A DNA stretch of 64,000 nucleotides from contig OX597814.1 of the NCBI GenBank assembly GCA_951406725.2, positions 103,354,001 to 103,418,000 of the forward strand, read 5' to 3'. Of the stretch, positions 1,105 through 62,890 are shown in pieces (positions within the stretch are counted from its first letter, which is position 1; each line of letters starts with the position of its first letter). The notes under the pieces were generated by a model. That model searched no databases. It saw nothing but the letters and a program-made list of their open reading frames with translations, and had not been told where the DNA came from. Source of the stretch: Octopus vulgaris (Eukaryota). The position numbers were made by a program, and so were the translations under genes.

Positions 1105-2175
1105 ATGGACAAAATTTAGCATTGTGGTATAATCAAGTACCTGCAAAAAAGGTGTTAGTCCCCAAAGACACTCATACTGACATGGTTGCTGTATTGGGGG
1201 ATGATGTTCCAGCTTTATAAACAGTGCAAAATTGGGCAGTTGAATTTAGGAGGGGAAGAGAATCTGGTCGATGACCCAAGGTCTGGACGTCCTGCAACTG
1301 CTACCACTGAAGAAAACATTGATCATGTTCCCCACATGGTGATGAATGACAGATGATTGACTGTAAGTCAAATAGCCAATGTTATTAGCTTATCCTGTAA
1401 GAGAGTTGAGAATATTCTGCAAAATAAACTTGGCATGATGAGGATTTCTGCTCAGTGGGTGCCACGTTTTCTGACCCCTGATCAAAAGTGCACCAGGCTG
1501 ATCACATCACTGGAAAATCTGTTTCCTTGAATGTTTGCTAACCTAGAAGAAGTGCTGGGTTCATCACTTTGAGCTAGAAACAAAGAGACAATCCATGCAG
1601 TGGAAACACCGCCTCCTCATCTGCTCTAAAGAAAGCCACGGTCATTTCAAATGCTGGGAATGTAATGGCCTTAGTTTTTTGGGATGCAAATGGTATTGTG
1701 TTTATTGATTATCTTCAAAAGAGCCAGACCATCATTGGAGAGTAGTATGCCAAATTGCTGAGATTGTTATTATGAAAGGCTGTGAAGACCAAATGCTCAG
1801 GAAACCTGACGAAAGGGCTTTTGTTCCATCAGCACAAAATGGTCCAGCATTGTCTATGGTTTCAATGGCTGTCCCTATTCTCCTGATTTGGCCCCCATCT
1901 GACTATCATCTGTTCCCCCAACATGAAAAAGAAAAAAACACTCTTGGCTGGGAACCAGTATCACAGTGATGATGTCATGTCCACTGTTGATGACTTTTTT
2001 GACCAACAGGATGAAAGCTTATTCCTCAATGAGATCCAAGCACTGCAACACTGATGGAAGAATAAGTGTGGAGACCGCAATGGAGACTGTGCTGAAAAAT
2101 TAAACCTCATTTAGTTACATTCCATCAAGAGACCGTCTTGGTCAGTGTATGAACTTTTCGGCCAACTCTTGTGTA
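1105..2175 (+). mobile_element. Degenerate mariner-family DNA transposon (transposase pseudogene)
   Basis: Frameshifted translation gives MDKI..IIKYLQ, TVQNWAVEFRRGRES..DDPRSGRP (HTH), QWVPRFLT (WVPxxL motif), VFWDANGIVFIDYL and YSPDLAPSDYHLFP; many stops. Confidence 0.9.
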
Positions 2176-8199: not shown

Positions 8200-9030
8200 C
8201 CATCATCATCATCATCGTTTAACGTCCGTTTTCCATGCTGGCATGGGTTTGACGGTTTGACTGGGGACTGGCAAGCTAGGAGATCACATAAGGCTCCAAT
8301 CTGATCTGGCAATGTTTCTACAGCTGAATGCCCTTCCTAACACCAACCACTCTGAGAGAGTAGTGGGTATTTTTTTACGTGTCACCAGTCAGGCGGCACT
8401 GGTGTCAGCCATGTTCAGATGGTGCTTTTTATGTGCTACCAGCATAGGAGTCAATTGGGGCGGGGGCTGGCATCAACCATATTCGAATGGTGCTTTTTAC
8501 GTGCCACTGGCACAGGGAGCCAGTCAGGCGGCACTGGCATCGGACACAACTACAATTTCCATTTGATTTGATTTTGATTTTACTTGACTCAATAGGTCTC
8601 CTCAAGCACAGTATCTGGTGAGACAATTCAAAGGTACTTTTTAAATGGGTTGGTTATGTGACACTGGTGTAGGCTACAGCTGTGATCTCACTTTACTTGC
8701 GGGGTCTTCTCAATCACAGCATATATCCAAAGGTCTTGGTCTTTTGTCATTGCCTCTGTGAAGTCCAATGTTCGAAAGTCATGCTTGACCACCTCATCCC
8801 GTGTCTTCTTGGGTCTCCCTCTTCCATGCGTTCCTTCTACTGTTAGGGTGTGACACTTCTTCACACAGCTCTCCTCATCCATCCATCGCACATGACCATG
8901 CCAATGCAGTCGTCTCTCTTGCACACCGCATCCGGTGCTTCTTATGTTCAACATTTCTCTCAGAGTGCTTACACTCTGTCATGTGTGCACACTGACATTA
9001 CACATCCAGCGGATCATACTAGCTTCAATT
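8200..9030 (-). mobile_element. 5'-truncated RTE LINE with 3' tail
   Basis: ORF 8688-8954 (QERRLHWHGHVRWM...GRGRPKKT) is a typical RTE C-terminus; the tail ends in (CAT)n at 8200. Confidence 0.85.
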
Positions 9031-13156: not shown

Positions 13157-13163
13157 ATGTCCG
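13157..13163 (+). CDS. SEPHS2: SPS predicted coding exon 1 (ATG TCC G)
   Basis: ATG 13157, weak donor gtcaat at 13164, 85-nt intron ending in a strong ttttccttttcctttcag acceptor; gives in-frame [10 protein letters not shown]. Alternative start is ATG 13293. Confidence 0.55.
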
Positions 13164-16100
13164 GTCAATATTTTCTCCTCTACTCGGAATTTTGGTCGTG
13201 TTATTTCCCATTCGAGCGGAATTAGAAATTTTTTCCTTTTCCTTTCAGATGTTCAGGAAGCCTGCCCGCCGGAGGAACCGCGAGATCTGTCGATGCGGCG
13301 ACCTTTCGATCCTGTCGCTCACGATTTGGATCCGAAATTCCGACTCACCAAATATGCTGACCTGAAGGGATGAGGGTGTAAGGTCCCCCAGGAAGCTCTG
13401 CTCAAGCTTCTTGAGGGACTACAACAGGACAGCAGTGCCCAGGAGTCCGAACACTTCCAGTACATCGCCAGTGTTCCTCGAATAGGTAAGAAATGGCTTC
13501 ACCAATTTTTTTTATTCTATCGGAAACGAGACATTGCTGCTACTGTCTCGGCATTAACCACCAAATCGGCTTTTATTTCGCCGATCTGGATGAAGTAAAG
13601 AACCCAGCTTATTTCTTTTAGTCGCAAATAATTTTCCTAAGTTTATTTTATGATTTTGGGGTAGATTTTGGTGTGTACCTTGTGTTTGTGAGACATAAAT
13701 AGGTTTTTTAATGTGACTCCCTTTCGATGCTCTCCTCTCCATAATGGCGGCTCTCAGCGCGTGGTGGCAGGTGTGTGTGTGTGTGCGTACGTGCGTGTGT
13801 GTTTGTCTGTGTCTGCAGTATACGTCGGCAGGTGTGTTTGTGTTGGCAGGTGTGTGTTTGTGTATGTCTGCAGTATACGTCGTTGGCAGGTGTGTGTGTG
13901 TCAACAACTTGTTGCAACAACATCCCCCCCACCCCCAGTTGCTCGTCTTTTCTTCTAAAACACTTATTTAAAAACATCTTTTATTATTATTCAGTCACAC
14001 TGTTTCTTATTGTTATTCCTGACCATCAATCCCGACTCAACACAAATTCTATCGTCTTTCATTTTTCAATTTACATCAAAAGATTTCCTACAAAAGAATT
14101 TTCCCTTTTCTGTTTTTCCCGGCGACTTCTTTCAACACAAATTTTCTCAACAGAACCAACAAATTAACTCAACATTTTCCCGTTTATTTTGCATTTTAAT
14201 TAAGAAAAAAAAAACGCAATTTTTTTCCTTCGGGCTCAGATTTTTATTTAAATTTCATTAAATTTTAACAAAGCTCGTTATTTTTCTTTCTCGTTTTAAA
14301 AATATATTTGCCAAAGACTTTTATTTAGATTAAATTCATTTCTTTAATTTTCCTATTAATTACAAATTTATTTCAATTTAAAAATTTGCTGTATTCTTTC
14401 TTAGACCAACCTAGTTGGCTCGTATTATTTAATTTTAACATATTTCTACTTAAATTATTTAATTAATTCAGTATATCTGAGGGAAGATTTAATTTAAAAC
14501 CAATTATTTCCAATTAAAAACAAAATATGCACATTGTTTCGCTTTAATGTTTTCCTCTTAATTTTGACAACAATCTGTAAGTTAGGGTTGTTTTTGTTTT
14601 ATAACAATATGAAATATTTGGTTCATGTTTGCTTATTAATATTTCTTTTATTTCATTTCCCTCTTCATATTCTTCCCTCTTTTCTTGGTGCAATTTTTCA
14701 ATTCTAGACTTACGTCATCGTAAACTTGGCATAAATTAGCCAACTTTTAAGACATTATTTCAACGTTGCTGCAATTTTCTACATTTTTAATTACTTATGT
14801 AAAAAAAATTGACATCTTTTGCTTACAATTCTATTAAAACACCTATTCGAAGTTAATAATTTTACTATCTTGCTTGGCCATATTCGATGCAAGTCTACCA
14901 AATTATCGATTTTCATCTATTCATAAATAAAATCGAAAATTTTTTTTATAAAACAAGCAAAAAAAGTCTTTGAGATATTATTATGAGATTCCTGAAAGAG
15001 ACAATGCGATAGGGGAGAGGGACCAAACGGTGTAAAAAGTTGATGGTGGGAAGTGTGACGAAAGATATGAAAACGGAAGCCGGTGGTTGTTAAGGGATAA
15101 CCTGCCTGTAGGGGCAGGGACTAGTGACTTCTATAATCCAGGGAAAGATGATTGTGGTAATAGAGGAGGCAGATGACTACAGGTGTTGTCAGTTAACAAT
15201 AAACCACTCTACCTAGGACTTAATGAACTGTAAAAATTCTTTGGTAGAGTACCACACCTTTGTAGCTTGGCTGTTGCTAAGAGAATTGAGTGTTAGGAAT
15301 TTAGCATGCAGGTAGGGTGTCCCTCACAGCTTGGCTCATAACATAATCCTAAAAGTGGAGTTTGAAACCAGCTGTGGGAACTGTAATGGTTTAGTTCTTC
15401 ATGGATCAAGATGTCTAAGATTTAGAGATGAAAATTCCTGATATGGAGGCAAAAGCCGAAAATTAGGAAGGCTGAAAGTAAATCGAGTAAAGAGAAAAAT
15501 ATTATAAAAGTAGAACTCTGCTGTCAAGATGTCAGCGTACAACTGCTGTATCTCAACTGGCCTACTTCATATATACGAGGAATGTGGGGTTACAAGTGGA
15601 GGAGGTAAACTTGTGTGGTTTTGTGGTAGATGCACAGCTGTAGTTAGCTGTGAGAGGATGCAAGGAATATATTCCATCCAATGCTTCTGTTAGTTAAGTT
15701 ACCAAATAAAATGTAGAGAAGTGTTGTGAAAGTAGTCAGAAGAAAACCAGGCTGGAAAAGTGCAGGGAGCCATTATTTGTGAGGGTAAAGGTTAGATTGG
15801 TATAATTCTTGTGTATGAAGTGTGATGGATGGTTGTGGAACGTGGCCGTTGAGTGTGGGATGTGTAGAAGCTGGGAAGAAACGAGGTGAACATGTTTTGT
15901 TGGATGTGTATGGATAATGGGACAAAAGTGGTTGGTCTGAGAGGAAGGAAGTTACAGAAAATTAAGATTGAGGAAATAATAGAGAGAAGTGAAGGCTGAA
16001 TTTTAGAAAAGAGATAAAGGAGTGTGGTGGGATGCTGTGCTGGAGAAGAGTTGTTTACCTGGTAAAACTGGAGATAAGGATGATACAGTGTAGATCTCAA

Positions 16101-19100
16101 GGGAAATGTTTCTAATGTTGGGTTAGGACCAACAGATTTCATTGTGTCATTTGTAGAAATGGGACATTGTTATGTTCTAATTGGTGATACCTAAAGAATG
16201 GATATCTTTTCTACTTAAGAATTGGATAGTTTTATGGAATGTTTTAGTATTGGAACAACAAACTGCATTATAAAACCTGATACCAATTAAAAACAGTTAC
16301 AAAATTTATGTTAATTTAGAAAGAAAATTTATTACAAGAAATTTTTTCTTCAGCTTCTTTTTGTAAAATGTCACTTTAAACAGGGTGTTTGTGGCATTAT
16401 CGTTTATTCAAGCTCAGAACTGACTGACTGCCATGTTCAATGCTTTATTTCATTCATAACAGCAGTGACAACTATTTCTCTTAAATTCCGATTAGTGCTT
16501 ATTTTCTTTACCCTTATTGACACCACCCTGCATGATACCATCTTCAGTTGTATTCTATAAATCCACCGCTTATATGTCCTTGGGACCCCTGATGTATGGA
16601 ATTTTGCTGATTGAGTATATACCCTCAACATGTACTATTTTCATGGATTAATTATATGCTCTGAGAGGTGTAGTTTTGTCTATGGTTAAGAGGTACACTT
16701 CCCAAACATGATTTTGGGTTCAGTTGTTCTATACAACACGTTGGCTAATTGTCTTCTGCTATAACCCTGGATCGATCAAATCTTTGCAAGTTAGCTTGGA
16801 AGGCAGAAACTGAAAAGACCATGCCGTGTGTGTGTGTGTATATCAGTGCATCCCCCAAAATCCCTGAGCTGCAAACAATGATTTTGTTGTCATTTCTCCT
16901 CTCACCAAATCGTTGGCTGGTTTTGCTCCTGAGATGATATGTAAAATTAAGGGGCCCCCTGCTTGAAAAAATGGGTAATGGTTAATAAGAGGAAGCAAAT
17001 GCAGCTGTAAAACAAAGCCTCAAAAATATGTTCATCTAACCCATTGTAGCATATAAAAACAAATGACGACTTCGTAGTGTTTTGCTAATAATATTATAAT
17101 GTTTAATACTTACAATTTCTCAACCATCATTTTTATATCCGTGTCTTGCTCCTCTCTGAATACTCTCACTCATCGTATCATTTCTGCAAGGTTGTCTTGA
17201 GGTTGTTCTTCTGTACTTTGTCTCATGCCTTCTGGGGTCTCCCTTTTTCGTGAGTTCCATCCACTGTGAGCGATCGGCACTTCTTTATAGAGCTGTCGAC
17301 ATCCATCTGTATCACATAACCAAACCAATGCAGTCTTCTCTCTTGCACACTGCATCTAATTCCTCTCATGCCTGACATTTCTCTCAACACACCAGCACTC
17401 TGTTGCATATGTACTCTTACATTACACATCCAACAGAGCATACCAGCCTCATTCCTCTCTAGCCTTTGCATGTCTTCTGCATTCAGGGCCCACATCTCAC
17501 TATCATGTAGAATTGTTTGTATACATCATACAATCTTCCTTTCACTTGGAGGGAGATAACAGAGGTAAAACATCTCGGAATTTTCTCTATCCTATTCTTA
17601 TTCTAATGATTACACTTTCCATGCATCCCCCCCCCCCCGCTAATTAGGTTCCCTAGGTAACAAATTATCCACTACCTCTAAACAGTCTTTGGGGCTCTTG
17701 AAAACATCAATTTCCTGAGAATCTGTAATTTTTATGACTCCTGTGCATCTTCCACATACAAACATTACTTTCTCTGACAATCTTCCTATTATTCCACTGC
17801 ACCTCTTGTGCTGAGTACAGTGGGTACACCATAATGGAATTCCTACTTACACCTTTCCTACAAATTGAGCAAGGCCATTCTCCTGATGGGGGTAGAGTCT
17901 GTTTTCTTAATTTCTAGAACAGTAGTCTTTGATATGTTAACCATAAGGCCAGATTCCAGGTTTTACTTCCACACTTGGAATATCTCTGATATGGAATCCA
18001 CTATGAGGGCAAGATCATCAGCATATAGTAGTTCCCAGCGACTACTAGTCTTGAATTCCTCTGTTATGGTCTAGAGGACAGTGATGAAAAGGAGGGAACT
18101 AGGGATGGAACCTTGATGAACCCCTACCTGTGCACCAAATTCTTCACAGTACTTGTGATTAACTCCCACCTTACTGACAGTGCCAGTTGTTGCGAGGTTA
18201 AAAGAATAATAGGAGAGAGAGAGACAGTGTGAAGGAGACTTAGAAAAATAGAGATGGTGGTGGATATGTTGGGAAATAGCTTTTGGGTGCAGTGGGAGAG
18301 AATTTCATCAGAATGTGAAAGAAAATGGTTAGGTGGGATAGAGATAGGAGTGGCACAGTGGGGGAAGGGGTTATAATAGATAGGTGAGGGCATTGGGAGA
18401 GATAGGGGATAAAAGAAGTGTTAAGGATGGATGGAGTATAGTAGAGAGGAGGCAGCATTGCTGGAGGAAGATGAGGAATGGAGGTGGTCCTGGGGAGGGG
18501 GAAGGCGATTATGGTTGTTGAATAATATCAAGTGATGAGTTTAGGGAGAAGCTTGATAGGGGTAGGGCAGAGCTGCTTTGCACATACAAACATTTACCAA
18601 AGTGGTTTTAGGATATCAATTCTGTTGTGGTGGGTGGGTTTTCTTGAGCACAACAAGGCTCCAGATATCTCAGTCCTTTGTCATCTCCTCTTTAAGGCTT
18701 TGTATCTCTTAATACTTTCTCCATAACTTCCTTCTTTGAGTGATTGGTACTTCTTTATGCAGCTATCCTCTTCCATCTGTATCACATGTGCTGTATTTTC
18801 TCCTGCACACTGCATCTGATTCCTTTCTAATCCACTCTGCAGGGTGGTTGGTGTTAGGAAGGGCATCCAACCATAAAAACCCTGCCAAAACAGTCACAGT
18901 AGTCTGCTGCAGGTTTCTGCCTGGCCGGCTCCTGTCAAACTGTCCAACCCATAGCATGGAAGGTGGATGTTAAATGATGATGATGTTGATATATAATATG
19001 CAATTCATCAGGGGACTAGGTATGTTCTATGAGGGCTCAGTTTGGTTTACCACTAAAACTCCAGTTTGAACATAAGAAATGTGTTTTAGTTAGAAATATA

Positions 19101-22100: not shown

Positions 22101-25100
22101 GTCTCGTAAATACTGGAAGGTTTGTCTGTATTCCAGTAGTTTTCATCTCCATAAAAATGTTTTGGGCAAAAGTGTCTTAATTTCGTTTAGGCATGTAGCA
22201 GACCAGAAATTGTCTTTTGTTTTCCCTTCGTTTGTATTCTGTGTAACAGTTTGGAATAACTGAAAAGGAAAAAAAATATTATATATAAAAACCATTATTT
22301 GCCTTTGATTCATTGGAAAGACTGTAACTGGCTCAAGTCTTGTCTGAAAAATCTTTTACAAAAAAGAAATACTTTAAAAATCCTTTCCTCATTCTGTTTC
22401 TGGTAAAACTTGCTTTTCCTATCGGAACTGTTGTCAGAGTTGTTGCTTTCACATTTGGAATCGAAATTTCTGGTTCTCCATTGCAGGTGGCTATATTTGT
22501 TGCATATTGGTTTTAACCCCCCCCCCCCCCCGCGAAAAATCCAAATCAGTATCTTTTCTTTTGAGTGAACTGGTGTCTATTTTTCTTTTCCAGTTGTGAT
22601 GGGGTAAAAATATCTGAAAAATTAATAAATCTATTAATTGCATATCTTGTTGGAGTTGCATGTTTCAATGAGTGGAGCAGCAAGATTTTGTGTTGAGATT
22701 CTCATTTTAGATCGAGACAGGGTCATTTTAGCTGGTTTCCTATTTCAAGTCGTTTTCATTGATCAGCGAGGAAATTGTTCTGATTGCACTGAGGTTCACT
22801 GAAATTATATAACTCTATGTTAGTTGTAATTGAGCTGATCTATGATCAAAGACATTCCAGTTGTGACTATCCCATCTTTTATTCGGATTTAACTATCTAA
22901 TGTGGTCCAATATATTTTGAGGGAGATTTGGCTACTTTTTCTATTTAGGTTGAGTGATGTGTGTCACCCACAGAGACAATATGATCTGAATAAACATTTT
23001 ACGTCCTTCGTTTGTCTGATTTAGTTGACTTCTTTCTGGCAATAAAATGCCATCACAGTGGCAAGGCTTTATCTTTCAGAAATATCTTTTAACCGTCAAT
23101 TAGGTTGGATTAAGACCATTTCTTGGATTCAATTTGTATTTTTATTAATTTCTTTCTTAACTCAGAAACTGAAAGTTGTGAGTTATATAAAAGCACTTAT
23201 CATCGTCGTCGTCACACCACTGAAATTAGCAAGCATTCTTTTCCTCCTTTGACCTATTTTATTTCCAGTTAAACATTTTTTTCTTTTCTAATAATTTCTT
23301 TTAATTCCCACTTGATAAATTTATGGCATTTTTCAAAACATATTTACAACTATGCATGTGTGTTTGGGTTCATAATTATTTTACTGGCCACTTTTCCATG
23401 CTGACATGGGTTGGACAAAACTTAATGAGGCAATTTTTTCTTTCTATAGTCCCATGCTCTTCTTGTCACAAATCTTGTTTCCAAATAAAACATTGTTTCT
23501 TCTAGTCCTATTCAGACCTGTTAGTGTGTTTCTTCTAGTCCTATTCAGACCTGTTAGTGGCCTTATATTTGTCTTGTTTGTTGTAATCCATGTATATATT
23601 AACAAGAGTTGTCTTTCTGCTCCAAATTTTTTCCCACATGTCTGTTATATTTTGAATATTGTAATACATAGTGTTTAGTTGTCTATAAATCCATACAGTA
23701 ATTATATATATTACGTGATAGTGACCCTGCTCTGCTGCTGTTTATATCTGGTTTTTGTAGCATTTAAACAACTTGCTACCCCATCTTACTGACCTTTTGG
23801 CCTCATGACAATTTGTCTTGTTAATTTTACATAGTTCTTGCTACAAAACAAGATTTGAGGTTAATTTTCTGTGAATATTTTTCTTTTATCTCCTCTGCTA
23901 CACACTTCTAATTTCTTATCAACTGCTCTTTCCATTTTATTTTATTTGGGAGTATTTTTATGATTAAACTTTATTTAGCGGCAGATGACTCCTCACCTTC
24001 ATTCATGATGTTTATCATCATCATCGTTTAACATCCGCTTTCCATACTGGCATGAGTTGGACAGTTTAATTGAGGGCTGGTGAGCCAGAAGGCTGCACCA
24101 GACTCCAATCTGATCTAGCAAAGTTTCTACAGCTGGATGCCCTTCCTAATGCCAATCATTCCAAGAGTGTAATGGGTGCTATTTATGTGCCGCCGCTATG
24201 AGGGCCAGTCAGGCGGTATTGGCATCAACCACGCTCAAATGGTCCTTTTTATGCGCCACTGGCACCGGAGCCAGTCAGGCAGTACTGGCAACAGCCACAT
24301 TTGAATGGTGATTTTTTTTTTATGTGCCACTGGTACAGGATCCAGTCAGGCGATGCTGGTGACAATCAAGCTTGAATGGTGCTATTAACGTGCCACTGAC
24401 ATGGGTGCCAATCAGGTGGTACTGTCATCGGCCATGACAACAATTTTACTTGCCTTAGCAACTTTTTGCAAGCGCAGTTTATTGCCCAATGATTGAAGGG
24501 TGCTCTTAAATGGGCTGGTTATGCAACACTGACATAGGCCACGGTTATGGTCTCACTTGGCTTGCTGAGTCTTCTTAAGTACAGCATATCTCCAAAGACC
24601 TCGGTCACTTGTCATTGCCCCTGTGAGGTCCAGTGTTCGAAGGTTGTGCTTCACCACCTCATTGGGTCTACCTCTTCCACAGGTTCCCTCAACTGCTAGG
24701 GTGTGACACTTTTTCATACAGCTGTCCACATCCATTTGCAACACATGACCATACCAGCGCAGTCGTCTCTCTTGCACACCACATCTGATGCTTCTTAAGT
24801 TCAACTTTTCTCTTGGGGCACTGTCGAGTATGCACACTGGTATTACACATCCAGTGGAGCATACTAGCTTCATTCCTTGTCAGCTTACACATGTATGTAG
24901 CATGACTGTTCACACACATGCGTTAAGAGCTCTCTTAACTTTGCCCAGGCTATCCTTACTCTAGCAGCTACACTTTCAGAGCATCCACTCCTGCTACTGA
25001 CTTGGTCCCCTAGGTACTGGAAGCTATCAACTACTTGTATTTTTTCTCCTTGGAATGTGATGGAAGCTGTTCTCTGCACATTTTCAGTGTCTATTGCTCC

Positions 25101-28100
25101 TGAGCATTTGCCACATACAAAAACTATCTTCCCAGTTAGCCTTCCTTTGATATTGCTGCATCTTTTATGTGTCCATAGCTTACACTGGGTACATTTTATA
25201 GAGTTTCTACCTACGCCTTTTCAAAAATCGAGCAGGGCCAAATACCTGAAGGGATTTGTGGTTTGTCTGCCTGCCTACTTATTAAGACTTTGGTTTTTGC
25301 TAGGTTAACTCTAAGGCCTTTCAATTCTAGACCTTGCTACCACACCTGAAACTTCTCTTCTAGTTCTGATAGTGACTCAGCAATTACAACAGGGTCATCA
25401 GCATAGAGAAGTTCCCAGGGGCAGCCTGTCTTGAATTCATTCCTCTGTTATTGCCTGGAGGACTATGATGAATAAGAAGGGGGCTGAGGACTGATCCTTG
25501 GTGGATCCCTACTCCTACCCAAAATTCTTCACTGTACTTGTTGCCAACCCTCACCTTACTGACAGCATCCCTGTACATGGCTTGTACAGCTCTTACTAAC
25601 CATTCATCTATCCCTAGTTTCTGCAGTGACCACCAGAAAAGGTATCTGGGGACCCTATCAAAGGCTTTCTTTATGTCAATGAGAACCAAGTACAGAAGCT
25701 TATCTTTGGCTAGGTATTTCTCCTGTAGCTGTCTTACCAGGAATATAGCATCAGTGGTGCTTTTCCCTGGCACAAACCCAAACTGCATCTCACCTAGACT
25801 GACTCTCTCCCTAATTAGTCGGGCTATGACGACCCCTCTGGCACCTTTACAGGTGGCACATAAAAAACACCCACTACACTCGCGGAGTGGTTGGCGTTAG
25901 GAAGGGCATCCAGCTGTAGAAACACTGCCAGACTAGACTGGAGCCTGGGGCAGTCCCGAGCTCCCCAGACCCCGGTCGAAACCGTCCAACCCGTGCTAGC
26001 GCGGAAAACGGACGTTAAACGATGATGATGATGATGATCCAATAACTTGACACCTGTAATTAAGTGGATCTAATTGCATCACCTTTACCTTTGTAGCAGT
26101 TGACTATGGTGCTGCTACACCAGTCATTGGGCATGACTCCTTCATGTATCTTATCACCTGGTTGACTATACAGGTGACTAGACTATAGCTAACACCGCCA
26201 GATATTTTAAGCATCTCTGTTGTGATTCCTGATGAGCCGGGGGCTTTCCCTATCTTCATACCCTTAATTGCTTTATCTACCAAGGTACTGTCAATTCTGA
26301 TAGCTGGTCTCTCTGTTGCGTCGACATGTTGTTAATCCTAAACAATGGTTAGATTGTTAAACCTGATCAGGCAGACTTATGGTCAAAGTTAATCCAGCCA
26401 TGACTGCCTCATCTTATAGTGTATCTAGGACTACAATGTTTTTTTCTAGTGTTTTAGGTGACATGTTTTGTTGGTAATGGTGTAATAGATAGCTAAAGAC
26501 ATCCAAATGAACTTTATTGGTTCCTCTATTGATGGAATATAGATTTGTTAGAAACTGGGTGTGTCTTAGCTCCAGCAGTAGATGAGGCAAGTTTGGAGTC
26601 AGTTAGGTTTGCAAGGTGAATATTGATAATATTAAAATGTTTTGTTGGTCATGTACCGAGGTGGGATCTCTAAATATTTGGATTGGTGATTCAGTCAGTT
26701 CCAACATATTGGTTGTTTGGTTGGTAGTTTCACAACAGTAGTAACATTCTGTCCCAAATAAATGCCTACTTTGTCCATTTTTGTGGTTTATTAAAAAAAT
26801 GAAGGGGGAACAGTAATATTGATGGTGAAGTGGAAATGGAAGCCAGAAGTTGAGGTGGTTCTTTTAGCAATCAGAAATCAACACTTCAACATATTGTTTG
26901 ACTACAGATTAATAGCACATTGAACTACGTAACCAAGGTAGCTAAGGGCCAGTTGATGTCAGTCATTGTATTTTAGTTGAGTAGTGAGACTGTTTGAACC
27001 TAGGAGTAATGGGTTTCTGGTTTCCTTTTTATTTGACTCTGCCAGAGTAATGACTATGGTCTCCTCTTTTCACAGTTAGTCAAAACGAATTCAAATCTTT
27101 AAATTATAGAAACAAATTAATAGAAAAATTTGGGCTTGAGGCCAGCAATTTTGAGGGTTTGGGGTTAGTCATGACTATTGACCTCAGCACTAGACTGGTA
27201 CTTTATTATATTAACCCTGCAGTAACAAAAGACAAAGTTGACCTCAGCTGGATTTGGACACAGAACTTGTCAGAGAAAGCTCTGCAAAGCATTTTGTTTT
27301 CCAACATTCTTATGGTTCTGCCTGCTCACCACTACACTTTAGCATTTAAACTGACCATATCCTGTTTTACTTTCAAACTGACTAGATCCAGCCTCTCACA
27401 CCTATCTACAATGTCATTCTAAAAATAAGCAGTCACATCATTGAAATTTTGGAGTTAGAGAATAATGCCTGATTAATTCAAAGCAATGTGAATGAATAAG
27501 CATTGCATTTGACAGTGAGGTCTAAATGCTAAAGGGTTAAGAGACCTGTATGGAAATAACAATATATGTTAAGGCAACTCTCTCTTCAAAACCTCTTTTA
27601 TTGTTTATTCAAAGAGGAAAAGGAAAGATTTTAAAGACATCTCTAAACTGCTGAGGGAAAGCAATCATTGGTGATAATAAAACAGATATTCAATGGCCTC
27701 TAACAGAGGCACAAGGCCTGAGATTGTATTAAGGTGATTGGGAGATTAATAATAATAATAGTCTGAAGAGTTGAACAATGTTGCCTAACACTTGTACCTC
27801 TCACAACTGTTGTTTATACGAGGAACATTGAAATATATTTTATATTTTTGGATATTGGAATGCCTGGCCATTACTGTTTTCAGCATTTTTCAAGCCGTGT
27901 GAAAATTGAGAGGAGTAATTACAATTAAGATTTCATTTTAGTTGTCATTCAAGTTTTATGTTTAAAGAAAATTACTAAGAAATAATAGATTGTTGCTGTT
28001 GAAATATTTGCAGTTCTTTGGTAGGACAACTAGTAAAACCATGAGCATTTGTATGAACTGAGTAAATATTTTTAATGTTAATCATCATCATCATAATCTT

Positions 28101-31100
28101 TTAATGTCTGCTTTACATACTGGCATGGGTTGGACAGTTTGACTGAGAACTGGCAACTCTGAAGGCTTTACCAAGCTCCAATCTGATCTGGCAAGATTTC
28201 TACAGCTGGATGCCCTTCCTAATGCGAACCACTCCGAGAGCGTAGTGGATGCTTTTTACGTGCCACATATTCCAAGCTGCTGACTTTTAAAATTATTCTT
28301 ATTTTTCTGTACTTACTAATTTTTATTTTCACTTGAATTTTCTCTGGATACCTAGTTCTAATACGGAAATTGCTGTTTCAATGCCCTTTTGACACTCCAC
28401 ACCCTCAACTCAATTTTGATTTTTGATTTTCATGTTAAAAGAAAAAAATATTTGTTCAGTGAAATTGAAATTTTGCTTTGTACTGATTTTCTTTTGTAGG
28501 AATTGGTATGGACTCGAGTGTGACACCCCTGCGGCACGGTGGGCTCTCATTGGTACAAACAACGGACTTTTTCTATCCCCTTGTAGATGACCCTTACATG
28601 ATGGTAAGTAGTCCTTCAGATATTTTTAGCCATGGGGAACAAAAACGTTACTCTAAACATGTTAATCTGTCTCACTTGTCAAGTCTTTTGTACCCAAAGG
28701 TTTTTAAGAAGACTGGGACCATAAACAGCTCATGGCTAAACACTTCTTAATATTCCAATTTTATCTAAGGTGGCAAGCTCACAGAATTGTTAGCATGCCA
28801 GGCAAAATGTTTAGAGGCATTTAGTCAGTCTTTGCTTTTCATCCTTTCAAGAGGTCAATAAAATAAGGACCAGTTGCATGGGAGATGCATTCAGTTTAAC
28901 CCCCAGCACCCACTCCCTGCCATTCTCTGAACTTGCATGCTTTGTGCCAGAATTTGAAATCCATATTTCAGTTTTATCCAAATCAACGTTTTAAGTAATA
29001 AATATAAGAATAAGATAATGTAAAAATATTATTTTGCTACCTTGAGATTTATGTGATAATTTATTTTAGAAAATTGTAATGTAAACAGGAATTAGTAAAA
29101 TAAAGAAAAAAAAAGCTGTTTAAAAAAATCAAGGAGATCCAATAGATAAGGAATTCAAATATTTGGTGAGAGGGGTGGATTAAAAATTAACGAGTATTGG
29201 GAAAATTAGCCATAAGAGTGTTGGAAAACAATTTGTTTTTGCTCACTGTTGTCTGCATTTAGTATGTTGTTCAAGCAGAAGGCGCTCATTAGATATATGT
29301 CATTAATAACCTAATTAGTGAATTAACTCTAAATTCTTTCTGTGGTTCATTGAAGAGACGTTTATCACTGTAAAGTACTTATTCCTTCAGCCCATAGTGT
29401 CATTTAATCAATCTAAAGAAAATTCAGAGTACCCCATTGCTTCCCATTTTTGTTTTGGTAGTGGCGGTGGTGGGATCCTAAGGTTTAATTAATCTGCACT
29501 TTGCTCTCTGTCCTTCATGCAGGTATTGCTAGGCAAAGTTCTAGTGGCTACATCAGTTTAGCCCTTTCGTTACTATATTTCTGACCAAAATACACCCCTT
29601 ATGTGTTTCAATTAATTTCTAACATAATCATAAATTTAGTCTGGTTTCATTAAACAGCTATAACCTTTTTATTTATCGATATTTTAATGTGATTTTTGGA
29701 AGATAATTTAATGAAAGGTTTTCAACCAATTCTATACCATAATTTTTGTCACAAAGTGACTCTCATTGCAGGTAGATACAGGTAAATACAGGTAAATTCA
29801 ACAAAGTATCATCATCATCGTTTAGCGTCCGTTTTCCATGCTAGCATGGGTTGAAAATTCAAATTTTTGTTCAAACATCGCTATAGAAAATGGGTTATTA
29901 GCTAATATTCAATTGGGTATACAACAAAATTTTACTATAGAATTTGTTATTCTGGGTAACTTTCTGATACCCATAATAATATTTATGGCAAAATAGGCCT
30001 TAATTTCATTTAAGGTTGTGGGAAACCACAAACTATCCTTTCTTTCGCTTTGTTTACATTTAGCGTAATGATTCGTTTCTGCCGTAATGATTTCAAATAG
30101 GCTCATTTGAAAAAGTAAAAAAAAATAGTCTACGTGCTTTACTCTCCTGGGAAAGACTGTGGCTTGGTCCAGTTTCTTCAGAAAAATCACTGGAAGAAAC
30201 AGTTTTTAAATTTTCACTCCATTCAGGTGCCAATTCATTTTCTTTATCGCTGTCGGAGCTCTCGGATTCACTGCTTTCACTTTCGGAAAATGAAACATCG
30301 GATTCATTATCAAATACCACATGCTTTTTTTTTTTTTCAGTCATAGTTAGATTTATCAAGGTCTTCAGTAGGAAATCCTTCGAATTCTGACTCACTGCTT
30401 GATAGAATGAAATTCATATCCATTTTTTGTCAGAGTTACAAATTTTGAAAACACAATAGGAACAAATTTGGAAAAAAATCTCCCAAAATTCACGGAATTA
30501 AAATTACGCGTCGATCGTCGATGAACTGTTTACAAAGTATAATCACGTGTTTTCACGAATGTACTAATGAGATTTGCTCTGATATTCTCATTTAAATATG
30601 AATAGGTAATTATGGGCAGTTTTGGGCGGCTTGGTCACATGAACCAAAATTTATTTCGGGTGGCTTTGGGCGGTTTGGTAACGAAAGTGTTAGCTGTCAA
30701 ATGCTACAATTTGTAGGAATTGGTTCCCATTGCCTGCCCCTATTTAGAGCAGTTTTATGTCAGTTCTTTCCCTTTATGTATTATCTGTTGAGCAGTGTTG
30801 TCTTGTGACTTCTGTCTTCCTTTTTGGCTCAGATCTGAAGTTCTTCATCAAGAAGTTTAACCTGTTGCTCCTCTTTAAATGCTAATTACTATTGTATGTC
30901 ATTAACAATGCCCACCATGGATTCTCTTCTCCTATTATTGATATCCATTCAGTAAAAGTCTGGTTCCCTGTTCCACACCCTGTGTTCATCTTTCAATGTT
31001 TCAATAAAGACAAAGACTATCTCAGGCAGACAGAAATGGAATATTGGTTTCATATCCATTATCATCATCATCAAACGTCCACTTTCCATGTTGGCATGGG

Positions 31101-32155: not shown

Positions 32156-35100
32156 TGACAGGCTTCTTACAGTTTCCGTCTACCAAATCCACTCACAAGG
32201 CTTTGGTTGTCCCGAGGCTATAGTAGAAGACACTTGCCCAAGGTGCCATGCAATGGGCCTGAACCTGGAACCATGTGGTTGGGAAGCAAGCTTCTTATTA
32301 CACAGCCACGCCTTCACTTATTCATGTAAAATATTGTTCCTATTTTCATTCTCTTCGTGTAACAATCTGTCCTGGGGTCAGGTTTTAAAGAATTGAAATT
32401 GAACTGATTGAGTTTAGATGATGTTATATTTAATACCAATCACCCTAGTGACTGAAGTTAAATATAAAAAAGTTGTCTAATCCAGAATATTTCCATGTCT
32501 TTTATAAATAAAGTTTAGTCTTGTGGTGGTCTCTTTTAAAATTTCACATGTTAGAGGTTAGGGTTTCACTCAACCTGTGTGGCCCATCTTATCACGAATG
32601 TATATAGGTGGTTACATTAGGTCACTTGTGCTCCGTTCACTCTACCTTTACCCTCTCCTCCTCTACTGCCTGTTATCATCACCTTGTGTTATGTCAGCTT
32701 ATCTAACAGCATACTCTAGTTCCTTTTCTCAAAGACTCTGTCATCTTCCTGCCATCTCAGTTATATTGCCTTTGATACACCTACCCATCTCTCAGAATAT
32801 TATCTACTCTATGACTCCTTCTCCTCCTCTTCTTGCTCACATCCCTCTCATCACTATCACTCATATTTCTCACTCTAATGGAACAGACAACTGAAAAGTG
32901 ACAGCCTGGAAAGTGGTTGGTGTTAAGGGGATCCACCTGTGGAAACCAAAGCATAATGGAGCCAAGTGTATAAAGTCCCCCTGTCTCGGAGAGCAGACCT
33001 GTCCCACTCGTGTCAGCATGGACAGTGGACATAAAATAATAATGAAAGAAACCAGAGTTAGAAATGAAGAGGAACCAAGTTTGTTTAAGGAAGCAGGACA
33101 GCTCTCAAAGAACAGAAGTTTTAGAGTGGGGAGTTGGTCTCTATGTTTGCAACGGGGTTCAGCAACAGGCAGTCAGGTGATGGAAAACTAAAACAGTTCC
33201 TCTGATGGGTTTCAGCATAGTTTTCATGTGATTATACAAGCTTTGTACCTAAAACTATAGAAGATATACTGTGAGATTGAACCCCAAAACATGAAGTTTG
33301 TAAAGCAAACTTAATCTATACTACCATAGCTGCACCAATAACTTGTATAGAAAGGATTGAATTATCTCCCTTTGTTTGAACTTTATTTTTAATTTTTAAC
33401 CCTTTCGTTACCAAACCGCCCAAAGCCGCCCGTATTTACCTATTCATATTTAAATGAGAATATCAGAGCAAATCTCTTTAGTACATTCGTGAAAACAGGT
33501 GATTATACTTCGTAAACAGTTCATCTAGAGTTTTGTACAACGATCGTCGTGTAATTTTAATTCCCTGAATTTTGGGAGATTTTTTTTCCACATTTTTTTC
33601 GGCATCGATTTTTCTTCAACTTTGAAAATGGATAGGAGTTTCATGTTATCAAGCATTGATTCCAAATTGGAAAATTTGTGAAACAAATACTGGATACTGC
33701 ATGGATTTAGTTTTTATACAGGGAAAATAATGTTAGTCAGCATGGCCTAGGGAATGATATGGTCTGGAATTTATCACTTCCATACCATAATCAGGGCCGT
33801 ATATTATTTTTTGACCGATTTCTTTAGTTTGGTCAAACGTGCGGTGGATTCCAGTATTTCACTTTATTCCACCTTTATGGTACACCTGTTGTGCATTAAA
33901 TTCAACTGATGATATAGTGATGTGCACAATTCTTCTTTATCAAAATTTTGTTGCATACCCATTTGAATATTAGCTGATGATTCATTTTCTATGGTGATGT
34001 TTAAACAAAATTTTAATATTTTTACCTTTTGCTCAATTTAAAATTTTAATATTTTTACCTTTTGCTCAATTTACCTGGATTTACTTGTAATTAAAGTCAC
34101 TTTGAGACAAAAGTTATGCAATAGAATTGATTAAGAATCCTTTCTTTAATTATGTTCCAAATATCACATTAATATGTTGATAAGTAAAAAAGTTAGTTAT
34201 TTAATGAAACAAGCCTAAATTCATGATTATTTTAGAATTTAATTGAAACTCATGAGGGGGTGTATTTTGGTCAGAAATATAGTAACGAAAGGGTTAAACT
34301 TAGTATTTTCTTAAGTATTAACAGTTTGTTTCTGCTTGTTTGATTGGTTTAGTAAATATTTGTGAATTAATAATGTCCTGTTTGTGTACAAGGTCTACCA
34401 TTGTATATTTTATACAAGACAGAACACGTAACATTGAACAAGTTTGTTTAACCTATTCCATTTAGTGGGACAACACTTCCCAAACAGTAAATCTCTTAAA
34501 AGTGTGATATCTATTTTTCATTGGATGTACAATGACTATCATCTAAATTGAATTAAATAACGATTTCATGTAAATAATTCTGTTTCCTTTTTTTCTTTTT
34601 AGGGTAAAATTGCTTGTGCCAATGTGTTAAGTGACTTGTATGCCATGGGCGTCACCGAATGTGACAATATGCTCATGTTGCTTGGTGTCAGTAATAAAAT
34701 GACAGAAAAAGAAAGAGATGTGGTCGTTCCAATTATGATGCGTGGTTTCAAGGTCAGTTTTACTGTTTTCATTTTAAATTAGTGAATTAATTAGAAAGAC
34801 ACTCTTAATTAATATATCTGTCTGTTGTTTGCTGTGGTATTTATTGCTTTAACCCTTTAGCATTTAAACTGGGCCATATCAGGCCCAAATATCTGACCTG
34901 CTTTATGTTAACACTAGCCAGATCTGGCTTCTCGCACCTACCCTACAATGTCATGCTAAAAGTAAGTAATCACATTGAAATCTCAAGGCTATGAAATCAT
35001 GTATGATTAAATTCATATCGATGCGAATAAATTTGCTTTACATTTGACAAAATAATCTGAAAGCTAAAAGGATAAAAGTTTGATGGATGAAACAATTCGA

Positions 35101-38100: not shown

Positions 38101-41100
38101 TAACTTCTAAAATACAAAATTTTGTAAAAAACGTTTAGAGTAAACCCTGTTCTATGTGACACATTCTACCAGTATCAGAAGTTTCAAAGTGTTTAGTTAT
38201 AAAAAAATGAATTAAATAATCTGTATGTCAAATTGAATAAATCTGAAATGGATGAAAGGCAAAGTCGACCTCGGTGGAATTTGAACTCAGCACGTAAAGA
38301 CAGAAGAAATACTGCTAAGCATTTTGCCTGGTGCGCTAACATTTCTGCCAGCTTGCTGCCCCAGAATGTAAACATTTATTTTAGAAATATATTCTTATTG
38401 GTTGGGGGCGTTACTCCTTTACTTACTTCCTCGCTTATTTTATATTTTATGACATTTCACCTCATAACTTATTTTCTACTAATTTTTGTTCAATGCGACT
38501 AACAATTCTGTATTCCTCACGCATTTTTCTATCATTTAAGCCTAAGAAAAGTATACTTTTATTTTAAAATTAAAAAAATTATGTTAATTGAAGAAGGATA
38601 CCTGCTTTACTGCCCAGCTTTAGACCTCACATATTTTGTTGTAATTTTTTTTTCTTACTGAACCAAATCTCAAACTATTTATGCCAAAGTGTAGCTGAAG
38701 AAATGTCCTCTTTAAGACTATTAACAATTTGTAATTTAGTTGAGAACTGAATTAGTGGTGAAGCTTGGAAGCTGCTGTGATTGACGAAATGGTTGACTTA
38801 AGAATATATTCAACCACTACTGTGGTTGAATGATTACAAATCACACACTTTGTGTAACAGCATCAAAGTTAAAGTAAAATGGTTTGGAAGTGAGAACTGG
38901 ATCTTGTTAGAAAAGAGTGGGGATGCAATTCTACATGTCCATTCTTTTCTCTCACTCATCTATGTTTGGAGTTATGATGACCAAAACTACCATTAGGTAT
39001 CCACATCTCATACTGTACAGACTGCAATCTCCTCCTTCACTCTGCCAGACTTTCTACTGGATCAAGCACCCTGACTACATCAGTAAGTGAACTTGGACAC
39101 ACAGATATAGGTGATGGTGGTGGTGCAGTTAGTGTGACTTTAGTGAAACAACTACAGGTAATTATAGGATATTATCACTGATGGTGATGACAATATGTGT
39201 CTCCTGCCAACATTAGTAAAATGTATTACCTGGTCCATGCCATTTGGGTGCATGGACAGAAGTTGGAAAATATAGAATATTTCCAGTATATATATGTCAT
39301 ATAAAAGTAAACTTAAAACATTTGTGGCTGTTGTACAGTTAGTATTCAATGAAATATCATCATCATCATCATCATCGTTTAACATTCGCTTTCCATGCTA
39401 GCATGGGTTGGACGAATGACTGAGGGCTGGCAAACTAGATGGCTGCACAAGGCTCCAATCTTGATCTGGCAGAGTTTCTACAGCTGGATGCCCTTCCTAA
39501 CGCCAACCACTCTGAGAGTGTAGTGGGTGCTTTTATGTGCCACTGGCATGGGGCCAGTCAGGTGGTACTGGCAACGACTTCGCTCGAATCCTTTACACAT
39601 GCCCCCGGCACAGGTGCCAGTAAGGTGATGCTGGTAACGATCACGCTCGAATGGTGTCTTTTACGTGCCACCAGCACGGAAGCCAGATAGCCACTCTGGC
39701 AACGATCACGCTCGGATGGTGCTCTTAATACCCTACTAGCACGGGGCTTGAGTGCCAGTAAGGCGACACTGGTAACAATCACGCTCGAATGGTGCCTTTT
39801 AAGTGCCACTGGCAAGGAAGCCGGTTAGCTGCTCTGTCAATGATCACACTCGTATGGTGCTCTTTGCACCCAGCTAGCATGGACGCCAGTCATCGAATTT
39901 GATTTTGATTTTTGAAATATAGGTTTCAGATTTTGGCACAAGGCCAGCAATTTTGGGGCAGGGGCTGATTCAGTGACATCAACCTCGGGACTCAACTGGT
40001 ATTTAATATAATTAACCTCAAATGATTGAAAGGTGAACCCGACTTTCGTGGAATTTGAACTCAGAACATAAAGACAGATGAAATGCCACTAAGTATTTTT
40101 CTAATGATTCTGTCAGCCCCCCCCCCCTCCCCCGAACTAATCATGACCCGAAGACACCAATAATAGAATGTGGCCAATGGAAATACAAGTTGTAATCTGT
40201 AGTTGATAGATGATGATGAATAAGTTGAAATTATATTTAGTTTAATTTTTTTCTGTTTAATTGTTTTTTTTTTTTTCCTGAAAACTTTCCTATCCTATTT
40301 TCTTGTAATTTTTTTCATTGAATCTCTTGTAAATTCCTGAAGGACTTGGCTGAAGATGCTGGCACCCAGGTATCAGGTGGTCAAACAGTTATTAATCCCT
40401 GGCTGACCATTGGTGGAGTAGCAACTACAGTATGTCAACCGAATGAATTTATAATGTAAGGAAACAAATATATTTATTCTCTTTTATCTTATTCGTTTCG
40501 CGTGTTAAAATGCGGCCATGCTGGGGCACCGGCTTGAAGAATTTCCAGTCAAATGAATTGATCCCAGTACTTTTTTTCTTTTCAAGCCTGTTACTTTATC
40601 ATTCTTTACTGCCAAACTGCTAAGTTACAAGGGCTGTAAACAAACCAATACTGGTTGTCAAGTAGTAGTGGAGGACAAGCAAACACACATTCACATGATG
40701 GGCTTCTTTCAGTTTCCGTCTACCAAATCAACTCACAAGGCTTTGCTTGGTCCAAGGCTGTAGTAAAAGAAACTTGCAGTGGGACTGAACCCAGAACCAT
40801 GGAGTTAGGAAACAGACTCCTTTCCACACTAATGATTTAAATTAATAAAACACTTTCGACTAAAACATTTTTACAAAGTTAATTCCCCATAGCTGTACTT
40901 TGTTGTCTTTAAAATACTAATTGGTTGTGTCTCGATTAAGGACCGAGATATTTGGTCTACTGCTATACTCAAGAAGAACCGTCTGCCACAGAACTGGTGC
41001 TGGTGCCACATAACAAGGCATCCAACCATAGAAACCCTACCAGAACAGACCCTGGAGCCTGGTGTGGCCCTCGGCCTTACCAGCTCCAGTCAAACCATCC

Positions 41101-44100
41101 AACCCATGCCAGCATGGAAAACGGATGTAAAATGATGAGTTCTTCAACAGTCTCATTTAATGTCATCAATAATTATTTTCAAAAAATAGTAAAATATTTT
41201 CCTTGCAATTAGAAGATTGACTCCACACTTTTGTAATGTCTTATAGAAACTGGTTTTTCCATAGTTATAGCCTAAAACAACTTATGAGAGGGAAGGAGAG
41301 AGGGACAGGCAGAATGAAATGAACGTACCCGCACCAGACAAGTTGCTTGGGCTCTGGCATGGCTATCTTCTAAAAGAGTCTAACAATATTTGATACAAGC
41401 GCCCAACTGTTTTCCTTGTCTCTCACCATCATATTTAGTTAATCTTACTACAGTCCACTCTGAAGGTGGTCAGTGATTTCTTTTTTTTTTTTTTTTTTTT
41501 CCTGAAGGTTTTCTTACAGAATACTTTGCTTTCTCTTTAATATTGGTTAAATTTTTTGTTTTATTCAGTATTTAAAATGTTTTTTTAGAATTTTAGTTAC
41601 TATTGGAAACAGTTTGTTGTTTGTAAATAATTTTTATCTTTATCAGTTGATTAGTTAAATATGTAAATATATGTGTATAGTTAAATCCTAGACAGGGCAT
41701 TTTAAAGGTACTTCTACAGTCAAAAGCCGTATCAACTGGGCTGAAATCTCAAGAGATTATTCCTTCTAGATTCCCTCAAATATTGAACTCTTTTTGTAAA
41801 GAAAAGTATTTAAAAAAATGCTTCTTTTCCTGACTTTATTTCTTTCAGGCCAGACAATGCTGTAGTGGGTGACGTTCTTGTTTTGACCAAGCCCCTGGGT
41901 ACTCAGGTTGCTGTGAATGCCCATCAATGGTTAGATGAACCTGAACGAATGTCTCGGCTCAAAATGGTTGTCAGTGAAGACGATATTCGTAAAGCTTATC
42001 ACAGAGCAATGTGCAGCATGTCAAGACTAAATCGCACTGGTATGTGTTACGATTTACCTTACTAATATCTTCTTATAATGATAATAGACTCAACCAACCA
42101 CACTTAGTGTGTATGAGTTCCATCTTACGCTCCTCTCGCTTCTACAGTAAGAGTTACTCCTTTGCTTTTGTTACTGTTACAATATTTATTCTCTTGACGA
42201 ATGTATTCGAATTTACCGTTTCTATCAACAGCACTTAGTGTTCTTTTTTTTTTAAAGAAATTTTGAATCATCGTTTCTTTTTTATTGTATTTTTAAAAAT
42301 TAATTCTAAATAAAATTTTGATCATTCTGTAACTATTAATGGCTTCATCTCATTTGAATGCTTATTTTTTGTTGTTCTTTCCAGCTGCTAGACTGATGCA
42401 CAAATATAATGCACATGGTGCCACTGATGTCACAGGCTTTGGCCTAATTGGCCATGCAAAGAACTTGTCAAAAATTCAGAAAAACGAAGTCAGTTTTGTC
42501 ATTCACAATCTGCCAATAATTGCCAAAATGGCTGCTGTCAGTAAAGCCAGTGGAAATATGTTTGGATTGTTTCAAGGACAGTCCGCAGAAACATCTGGTA
42601 AGTTGACAACTAAAGCATTGATGTCTCTATTTTTTTTACATTAGCCGATTCTGTGTGCATGCGTTTACAGCTGTTACTACATTTTGGGACTGGCTTTCCC
42701 TTGAAGGCAAATGAAAGTAAAAATCCTTCATCCATTGCTACACAACAATTTCAACTTTGCCATACTTTGAGTGATACAGACATTTTGATATTTTGTAAAT
42801 TATTTAGAAAACTTTCATACTAAAATTTTATCATTAATTTAGAAATTAAAATTTTATTAGTAAATCTGGTACCATGTAAAAAGCACCTGTAGCAATGCCC
42901 CATAAAAAGCACTGGTGCTGGTGCCACGATGTTTAGAAAACAAAGTAAATCTACTCCAGAATAGTTGAAAAGTTTCGTTCTCTTTGTCCAGCACTGTTTA
43001 CAGTATCAGAAAGTTTGAAATTTCTGATTGTCTCCATATCCTCAATGAGTTAGGCTTGATACAATTTGTTTTTGTAGCATTTGAAAAAAAATCAGTCAAG
43101 TTCACAATTATGGTGTATGAAACTTTTATTTAATAACAGTAGAAATAAGGCCCCTCGCCCCACCTTAAAAAAACGAAAGTTGTGTTAAAAAATGTTAGAT
43201 GGCTTAGAATGTTTAACCCTTTTGTTACCAACCCGGCCGAAACCGGCTCTGAGTACAAATGCCTTGTTTTCATAAGTTTTGAATTAAAATCTTCAACCAA
43301 ACCTTAGTCACAATTTATGTTTGTAACACTAACTGAATGATAACCAAGTTATTTTACTAAATTCTTTGTTATATTTAAAGTAATTCAAAGAAACACAGAG
43401 CATCTCAAAATAAATACGGTATCGAAAGGGTTAATTGATGATGATGAAGTAACAATATTTATGTTAATGGTTTGACTTAACCCTCTCATTACCATATTTC
43501 TGTTGAAATCCTCTCTTTGTTTCAATTGAAAATAATGAAGACTTTAGTAAAATAACTCTGTTATTATTAACCGTTTCGTTATTTCTAACCAAAGTGGAAT
43601 CGCATGTTTTCACGAATGTATTGACTAGATTTGTGCTGAAATTCACAATTAAATGACAATGGGTTTACTCGGCTGGCTTGAAAGTTGTGTTAAAAAATGT
43701 TAGATGGCTTAGAATGTTTAACCCTTTCGTTACCACCCTGGCTGGGTTGATTGTTTGAGCCAAAAAATTTTTCAGCTGTGAAATTTTTAAGCTGGTGTCT
43801 GGGATATAAATTGAAAGTTTTAATTTCCATTGTTATTTATATCATAGAACCAGGGGTATTTTCAGGTGGGTAATAATTAATGATTGATAATTGTTTTTCA
43901 TTTAGTAGGAAATGGATTTTCTTTGTCCATAAAGCTTTTGATCATTCCTGTCCTGCTGATGTAATAAATGGTTTATATGAGGTGCTGTTTCTTTTGTAGG
44001 TGGTTTGCTGATTGCGCTTCCCCGAGAACAAGCTGCTGCATATTGCAAAGATATTGAAAAGCAAGAGGGGAACCAAGCTTGGATTATTGGAATTGTGGAG

Positions 44101-46226: not shown

Positions 46227-46297
46227 AATGGTCATCTTAATGAAATGACATTGGGAATTCGATGTCGAACCAGTGGCATGGATAACTGATGACCATT
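46227..46297 (+). promoter_or_regulatory. SECIS element (type II) in the SPS 3' UTR
   Basis: Helix I aatggtcatc/gatgaccatt (10 bp perfect); core A-TGAA (46240-46244) opposite GGAT (46280-46283); helix II atgacattgg/ccagtggcat; unpaired GAA (46255-46257); mini-stem ttcg-atgt-cgaa. Confidence 0.92.
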
Positions 46298-46335
46298 TTA
46301 CGTTCAACGTGATTTCCAATCATCTTTAAATCAGA

Positions 46336-46341
46336 AATAAA
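46336..46341 (+). terminator. Distal poly(A) signal of SPS
   Basis: AATAAA ~40 nt after the SECIS, followed by a GU/U-rich tract (ttctgttttctgtgttttttttt). Confidence 0.7.
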
Positions 46342-46442
46342 ACACCAGTTTCACCAGATTTCTGTTTTCTGTGTTTTTTTTTTCTTTTCTTGGAATATTG
46401 ATGAAGGATGGCTTTGATGTGAATCTTTTGTTTATAACTGCT

Positions 46443-46806: not shown

Positions 46807-46859
46807 TGGCAGGGAAATGGGTTGATGCAAATGGTTTGTTGAGCTGCCACAATATCCTC

Positions 46860-60039: not shown

Positions 60040-62890
<2,851 letters not shown>

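Follow-up and report, generated by a model that had tools for sequence, protein, structure and literature searches.

The selenophosphate synthetase (SPS) gene of Octopus vulgaris carries, shortly after its in-frame UGA codon, a hairpin of the Sec redefinition element (SRE) type that is real, under selection and of a stability well beyond what the encoded protein demands. This conserved SRE likely disfavours termination at the UGA, so that Sec would be inserted under the predicted SECIS element of the same transcript. The analysis covered the window, i.e. the whole stretch of 64,000 nt of octopus DNA, together with SPS homologues from metagenome contigs. Two hallmarks of an SRE were found, namely a stable stem-loop a few nucleotides 3' of the Sec UGA and pairing that is conserved in homologues and tied to the UGA, covariation itself being modest. 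The initial annotation of this DNA had proposed a recoding hairpin of a type already described 3' of the UGA in metazoan SPS genes, in agreement with the element described in PMC4561486 and with the way the stem tracks the UGA in the present comparison.

Gene structure and public records

Eight coding pieces on the forward strand, separated by introns that are all GT-AG, give a frame of 399 residues with one internal UGA. The first piece (ATG TCC G, 13157-13163, followed by a GT donor) is predicted from sequence alone; the second (13249-13485), bounded by AG and GT and otherwise open in frame, contains both the UGA and the hairpin. These are followed by predicted exons at 28500-28603, 34603-34752 (with a match to the AIRS N-terminal domain at E 0.0034, under the curated cut-off) and 40343-40455, by an exon at 41849-42039 whose splice to the following exon is visible in contigs, by 42385-42597, and by a last exon at 44000-46358 that is coding up to the TAA at 44182-44184 and continues as a 3' UTR of about 2.2 kb. 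Single exons matched AIRS and AIRS_C just under cut-off. The peptide of exon 42385-42597 was 100% identical to the selenide, water dikinase of O. vulgaris and O. sinensis and 99% identical to the Argonauta record, so that the gene product is an SPS/SelD protein. The UGA (13371-13373) forms codon 44 of the predicted frame and falls, in the context LKG*GCKVP, where SPS proteins have their Sec; coding conservation extends across it. The gene is likely a selenophosphate synthetase of the SPS2-Sec type, with Sec insertion predicted at this codon. Among the best 120 of 908 protein matches, a sample that is weak on paralogues, this was the only SPS orthologue named for Octopus.

The public Octopus and Argonauta records (P0085-P0087) begin at a Met after the UGA and span 315 aa or less, the start Met of the Octopus records lying 41 residues downstream of the UGA; all of these records therefore miss the Sec-bearing N-terminus. 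The O. sinensis record is titled “inactive selenide, water dikinase-like”. A high-copy repeat occupies 43213-43434 in the last intron, where the summed depth of contigs was very high in each of the four runs, and a tandem array with a unit of about 39 bp (46329-46877) lies just 3' of the transcript end. Broken frames at about 53760-54734 (reverse strand) and 61994-62868 (forward strand) resemble what we take to be pieces of a Helitron/PIF1 helicase, and broken fragments at about 24556-26331, 17226-17525 and 8691-8978 (-), several of them within SPS introns, are presumably remnants of LINE reverse transcriptases.

Geometry and strength of the hairpin

The positions initially assigned to the UGA, to an 8-nt spacer starting with GGG TGT and to the arms and loop of the hairpin were borne out. 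The UGA is preceded by a GGA codon (13368-13370, A at -1) and followed by the hexamer GGG TGT (13374-13379, Gly-Cys), which opens the spacer (13374-13381). The hairpin (13382-13420) consists of a 5' arm at 13382-13396, a 9-nt loop at 13397-13405, narrowed to 7 nt by an extra U-A pair, and a 3' arm at 13406-13420. The stem had been described as 15 bp; there are indeed 15 facing positions, but only 14 of these pair (12 Watson-Crick and 2 G-U), with a C.A mismatch at 13388/13414, and the predicted fold reaches 15 pairs once the loop-closing U-A is included. An extension of the stem by tgta/taca had also been suggested, of which three pairs fit (13377-13379 with 13421-13423, past a 2-nt bulge), whereas the fourth would use T13420 twice; the extension contributes only about 0.3 kcal/mol (-23.7 versus -23.4 kcal/mol). 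Cephalopods are known to edit A to I widely. Editing of the stem or of the UGA was considered and set aside, as the mismatched A has a 5' G, which is a poor context, and the UGA lies outside the main stem; a literature search found no paper on A-to-I editing of the SPS stem or UGA.

That the hairpin is not a chance product of the coding sequence was confirmed by recoding the protein with the gene's own codon usage: only 2 of 5000 synonymous recodings reached -23.4 kcal/mol, the mean being -9.1. The hairpin also had the lowest z among the 123 fifteen-codon windows of the coding sequence, by a narrow margin (-4.6, the next being -4.4), and 3 of 4264 windows of 45 nt on the forward strand folded as well, the hairpin itself counted. 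Dinucleotide shuffles proved too dependent on the frame chosen to serve as the principal control, z ranging from -0.65 for 81 nt to between -1.68 and -3.72 for four shorter frames.

Conservation of the hairpin in SPS homologues

A degenerate pattern in which the Sec codon was left free, applied to metagenome contigs, gave a sample of at least 117 loci, which with the window make 118 matches, 105 of them distinct after removal of 13 duplicates. Six chance matches to sequences other than SPS were left out before counting, and 48 other loci (46 UGA and 2 Cys) were held as a separate group. A FastTree phylogeny was generated from 83 rows, comprising the 74 of 105 distinct matches with at least 120 aligned residues and nine proteins; its animal clade (local support 92) holds the Amphimedon, Patiria, Panonychus and insect proteins along with 28 UGA and 7 Arg genes. 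Another 16 short loci, 8 with UGA and 8 without, were counted as animal on visual inspection of their peptide and not by their place in the tree. In the homologues, the codon at the Sec position was UGA or encoded Arg, Thr, Leu or Cys.

Among the matches listed, all 36 animal UGA genes folded at z values between -2.66 and -6.0 relative to uniform synonymous recodings, whereas 13 of the 15 animal non-UGA genes gave values between -0.9 and +0.2, the exceptions being two Arg genes at -2.35 and -2.92. The difference persisted at constant peptide. Specifically, loci sharing an identical 17-residue peptide folded at -23.6, -27.1 and -24.4 kcal/mol where the codon was UGA (L002, L020 and L116) and at -10.7 and -9.9 kcal/mol where it was Arg (L085 and L068), and the near-identical peptides of L090 (UGA) and L100 (CGA) gave -21.0 and -11.6, respectively. 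The L090/L100 peptide type, KVPRDVLHRLLE, falls outside the insect clade in the tree, and the CGA of L100 is possibly a separate change from UGA to Arg. The non-UGA animal set spans four different residues, and the comparison shows loss of the stem in several separate lineages (Arg, Thr, Leu and Cys). Pairing was conserved in the homologues and tracked the UGA. Outside the animal group, 8 of 42 UGA genes among the matches listed reached z <= -2.3; since most other eukaryotic UGA genes are without the stem, it is dispensable for Sec insertion in general. In one locus of the separate group (L095, a 312-bp flank locus on the reverse strand) the genomic frame breaks after LLE, inside the 3' arm of the stem, as if an intron split the hairpin, which could then form only after splicing; this break is why the locus was placed in that group.

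Restricted codon choice within the stem accompanied the UGA, with free third positions occupied by bases able to pair. Among the matches listed, the third position of the Val codon was a pyrimidine in 32/32 UGA versus 5/8 non-UGA genes, that of the Glu codon was G in 29/29 versus 9/14, and that of the Pro codon was a pyrimidine in 29/29 versus 6/14; the restriction at the Gly third position was not significant (28/32 versus 5/8, p 0.13). As the sequences are related, all p-values overstate significance. When scored on the structure of the window, 81.1% of cells were paired in UGA genes and 59.2% in non-UGA genes among the matches listed. Sixteen cells in UGA genes carried a change on both sides of a pair, a number reached in 0/500 shuffles, while the number of pairs showing such two-sided change (5) was within the shuffle range (206/500). 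Three compensations were seen among the matches listed, each probably representing one event: at +12/+44 C-G became U-A in 3 genes, with Gly replaced by Glu; at +15/+41 U-A became A-U in 3 genes, with Glu replaced by Val; and at +17/+39 A-U became G-C in 4 genes, with Gln replaced by Arg. The lower stem (+9 to +16 with +40 to +47) is conserved and the register of the upper stem differs among animals; RNAalifold over the 36 UGA genes accordingly kept only 5 consensus pairs, all in the lower stem, as in many of them the upper stem is offset by one base. The register places third codon positions opposite second positions and never opposite one another, so that two-sided changes bring amino-acid changes and the originally suggested check, covariation at synonymous sites, is a weak test; what that check yields instead is restricted codon choice and compensations accompanied by residue changes.

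SECIS candidate and 3' UTR

A type II SECIS candidate was found at 46228-46296 of the forward strand, about 2.05 kb beyond the stop codon, using our own descriptor and fold. It is made up of helix I (46228-46236/46288-46296), the core AUGAA (46240-46244) and GGAU (46280-46283), a 10-position helix II, a GAA bulge (46255-46257) and a mini-helix. Its z was -4.53, with 0/200 shuffles as good, and it topped the six descriptor matches on the forward strand (helix I energy -17.3 versus -8.8 or weaker). Rfam gave no match at gathering level over the whole window and none to its SECIS families over 44180-47500 at E <= 10; the presence of a SECIS in the 3' UTR is therefore given at candidate grade, from descriptor, fold and a spliced contig, with Rfam silent.

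This contig, from run X1, is 3519 nt long and covers 43999-46358 with the last three exons joined at GT-AG ends; it passes through the SECIS candidate, and its match ends 17 nt beyond the AATAAA at 46336-46341, just past the candidate. The run is presumed to be RNA, and the GT..AG joints show splicing. The contig carries 719 further upstream letters, compared with 604 nt of predicted exons 2-5, and from this upstream length we infer that the UGA and the SECIS candidate lie on one mRNA. A contig from run X11 has the same splice joints and ends at 44793, next to a GAG repeat that shows a length variant. This end is taken for a break in the assembly rather than a poly(A) site, since transcript ends are not revealed by contigs of this kind. 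Runs X13 and X17 gave no exon cover of the SPS gene. Three further AATAAA, putative signals on the forward strand, occur upstream of the SECIS candidate at 44671, 45931 and 45983.

Proposed mechanism

As the SECIS candidate lies on a spliced contig of the gene, SECIS-dependent Sec insertion aided by the hairpin is likely the main route. The mechanism proposed draws on what has been reported for SELENON and for readthrough geometry (PMC6844570, PMC8704476, PMC3159437). The stem would lie at the mRNA entry channel once the UGA occupies the A site, and release would be slowed or disfavoured; the delay would allow Sec-tRNA to be brought in by the SECIS-SBP2-eEFSec complex, yielding the selenoenzyme SPS2. 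SREs have been described to promote Sec insertion in SELENON (PMC6844570, PMC8704476), and spacers of 8 nt fit the entry-channel action proposed for other readthrough structures (PMC3159437). Low near-cognate readthrough may accompany Sec insertion, the data being explained without it.

Hexamer and possible SECIS-independent readthrough

The hairpin itself was rightly treated in the initial annotation as separate from the SECIS. It was further inferred there that the UGA can be decoded with SECIS-independent help. In the dual function hypothesised in PMC4561486, hairpin and hexamer would also drive SECIS-independent near-cognate readthrough, at a level of consequence, yielding a non-Sec, SPS1-like isoform from the same gene. 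Such a second function would add to hairpin-aided Sec insertion and is compatible with it; we consider it possible but doubtful. The hexamer does follow the UGA, as had been noted. Since Gly-Cys is fixed by the protein, it amounts to one synonymous base, the choice of GGG, a codon used for 3 of the 31 Gly in the octopus gene. Among the matches listed, the hexamer was present in 14/36 UGA versus 0/15 non-UGA animal genes, and in the 30 genes with enough codons it was observed 13 times versus 4.4 expected from their own Gly usage, both of which speak for a role in readthrough. Against this, 22 of the 36 hairpin-bearing UGA genes among the matches listed are without it, including L023 and L060, the loci nearest to the window in the tree; the stem is of similar strength either way (mean z -3.8 without and -4.0 with hexamer), the hexamer clusters largely within a single region of the tree, and GGG also occurs at about twice expectation (11 versus 5.7 in 41 genes among the matches listed) in other eukaryotes, which are mostly stemless. 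The hexamer is a weak marker. The GGA before the UGA separates the two groups better (28/36 UGA versus 3/15 non-UGA animal genes among the matches listed, these being related and non-independent). At that position GGT preceded the Sec UGA in 1/36 animal and 2/46 other eukaryotic UGA genes and was the commonest codon in non-UGA genes (8/15), again among the matches listed.

The arrangement of the 3' UTR bears on the same proposal in both directions, since the three AATAAA upstream of the SECIS candidate would allow a shorter message, while the sole contig spanning the 3' UTR includes the candidate. Moreover, with six introns further downstream, an mRNA lacking the SECIS would be open to NMD. 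One metagenome locus, L002, has the UGA, hexamer and hairpin with a 3' UTR of 1064 nt that contains no match to our SECIS descriptor, as would suit readthrough independent of the SECIS. SECIS-less hymenopteran SPS1-UGA genes are likewise reported to retain hairpin and hexamer (PMC4561486), and the SEPN1 SRE to boost readthrough without a SECIS in cells, though not in vitro (PMC3159437); on the other hand, the viral motif to which the hexamer is traced was reported after UAG, not UGA (PMC4561486). In L002 itself (UGA match 2114-2140, reverse strand) the 3' UTR ends 10 nt after the start of an AATAAA. Its clade holds the Arg genes L021, L027, L038, L042, L044, L068 and L085, lies beside insect SPS1 and possibly represents SPS1-UGA and SPS1-Arg outside insects; supplement S5 of PMC4561486 mentions independent duplications in non-insect arthropods that are not displayed there. 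The long octopus 3' UTR with its upstream poly(A) signals makes a dual function simply testable, and there is a small chance that the gene would directly exemplify the ancestral state with two functions that was put forward in 2015.

Other explanations of the pairing

It is quite unlikely that the main target of the hairpin is the fate of the mRNA, through pausing, selenium-dependent stability or protection from NMD or no-go decay, and not residue choice. A stem kept only where the codon is UGA would be expected here too, and mouse Sephs2 mRNA is reported to be destabilised in a translation-dependent manner when Sec insertion fails (PMC5397149), but the SELENON SRE altered recoding when tested in reporters and in vitro (PMC6844570, PMC8704476), and nothing in the present analysis suggests a role in decay. 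It is highly improbable that the pairing merely follows from the conserved peptide KVPQ...LLEGL, for although the peptide forces part of it (59% of cells pair in non-UGA genes), the fold is about 14 kcal/mol weaker where an identical peptide comes without the UGA, synonymous recodings as stable are as rare as stated above and third positions are restricted.

Comparison with known recoding systems

Viral type III readthrough signals (UAG-G) resemble the octopus element in their G-rich context and in having a structure at a distance of about 8 nt on the 3' side; the viral signals, however, combine UAG with a pseudoknot or long-range pairing and have no SECIS, whereas the octopus gene has UGA and a hairpin. 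In the searched text of PMC4446449, PMC5009743, PMC2500217 and PMC13517186, no test of GGG-UGY after UGA was found. The hymenopteran readthrough element (HRE) of insect SPS1-UGA genes shares with the octopus element the hexamer and a homologous downstream stem, but HRE genes are without a SECIS and the octopus gene has a SECIS candidate. The HRE is moreover a three-stem clover with the UGA in an apex, a form that the predicted octopus fold does not take, and no conserved upstream stem was seen in alignments of SPS homologues from -42 to +54.

As in SEPN1/SELENON (PMC3159437, PMC6844570, PMC8704476), the Sec UGA is soon followed by a coding-region stem of about 15-16 pairs, and a SECIS, in octopus a candidate, lies further 3'. 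The genes are unrelated, the spacer and loop being 6 and 5 nt in SEPN1 and 8 and 7-9 nt in octopus SPS, and SRE function was tested in SEPN1 while the octopus element is known from its sequence and predicted fold. Literature searches, as far as the records listed extend, found no octopus-specific or experimental study of the SPS hairpin element and no experimental test of a non-Sec readthrough product from SPS2.

The octopus element corresponds to that of metazoan SPS2-Sec as described by Mariotti et al. in 2015 (PMC4561486), where an SRE and a hexanucleotide are reported in unduplicated genes, both stem and hexamer in non-vertebrate, non-insect bilaterians (supplement S6). The octopus gene shares with these a stem starting 2-10 nt after the UGA, the hexamer GGG-UGY and, at candidate grade, a SECIS in the 3' UTR, and the Capitella row of supplement S8 has the same lower stem as octopus; no octopus or mollusc SPS sequence was found in the supplements searched. 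With the octopus hairpin, an ordinary and already published trait of animal SPS genes is seen in a further lineage. The added value is modest and consists of compensations that come with amino-acid changes and of a matched contrast between UGA and non-UGA genes: unlike in the parts of PMC4561486 compared here, the stem was set against non-UGA homologues of matched peptide.
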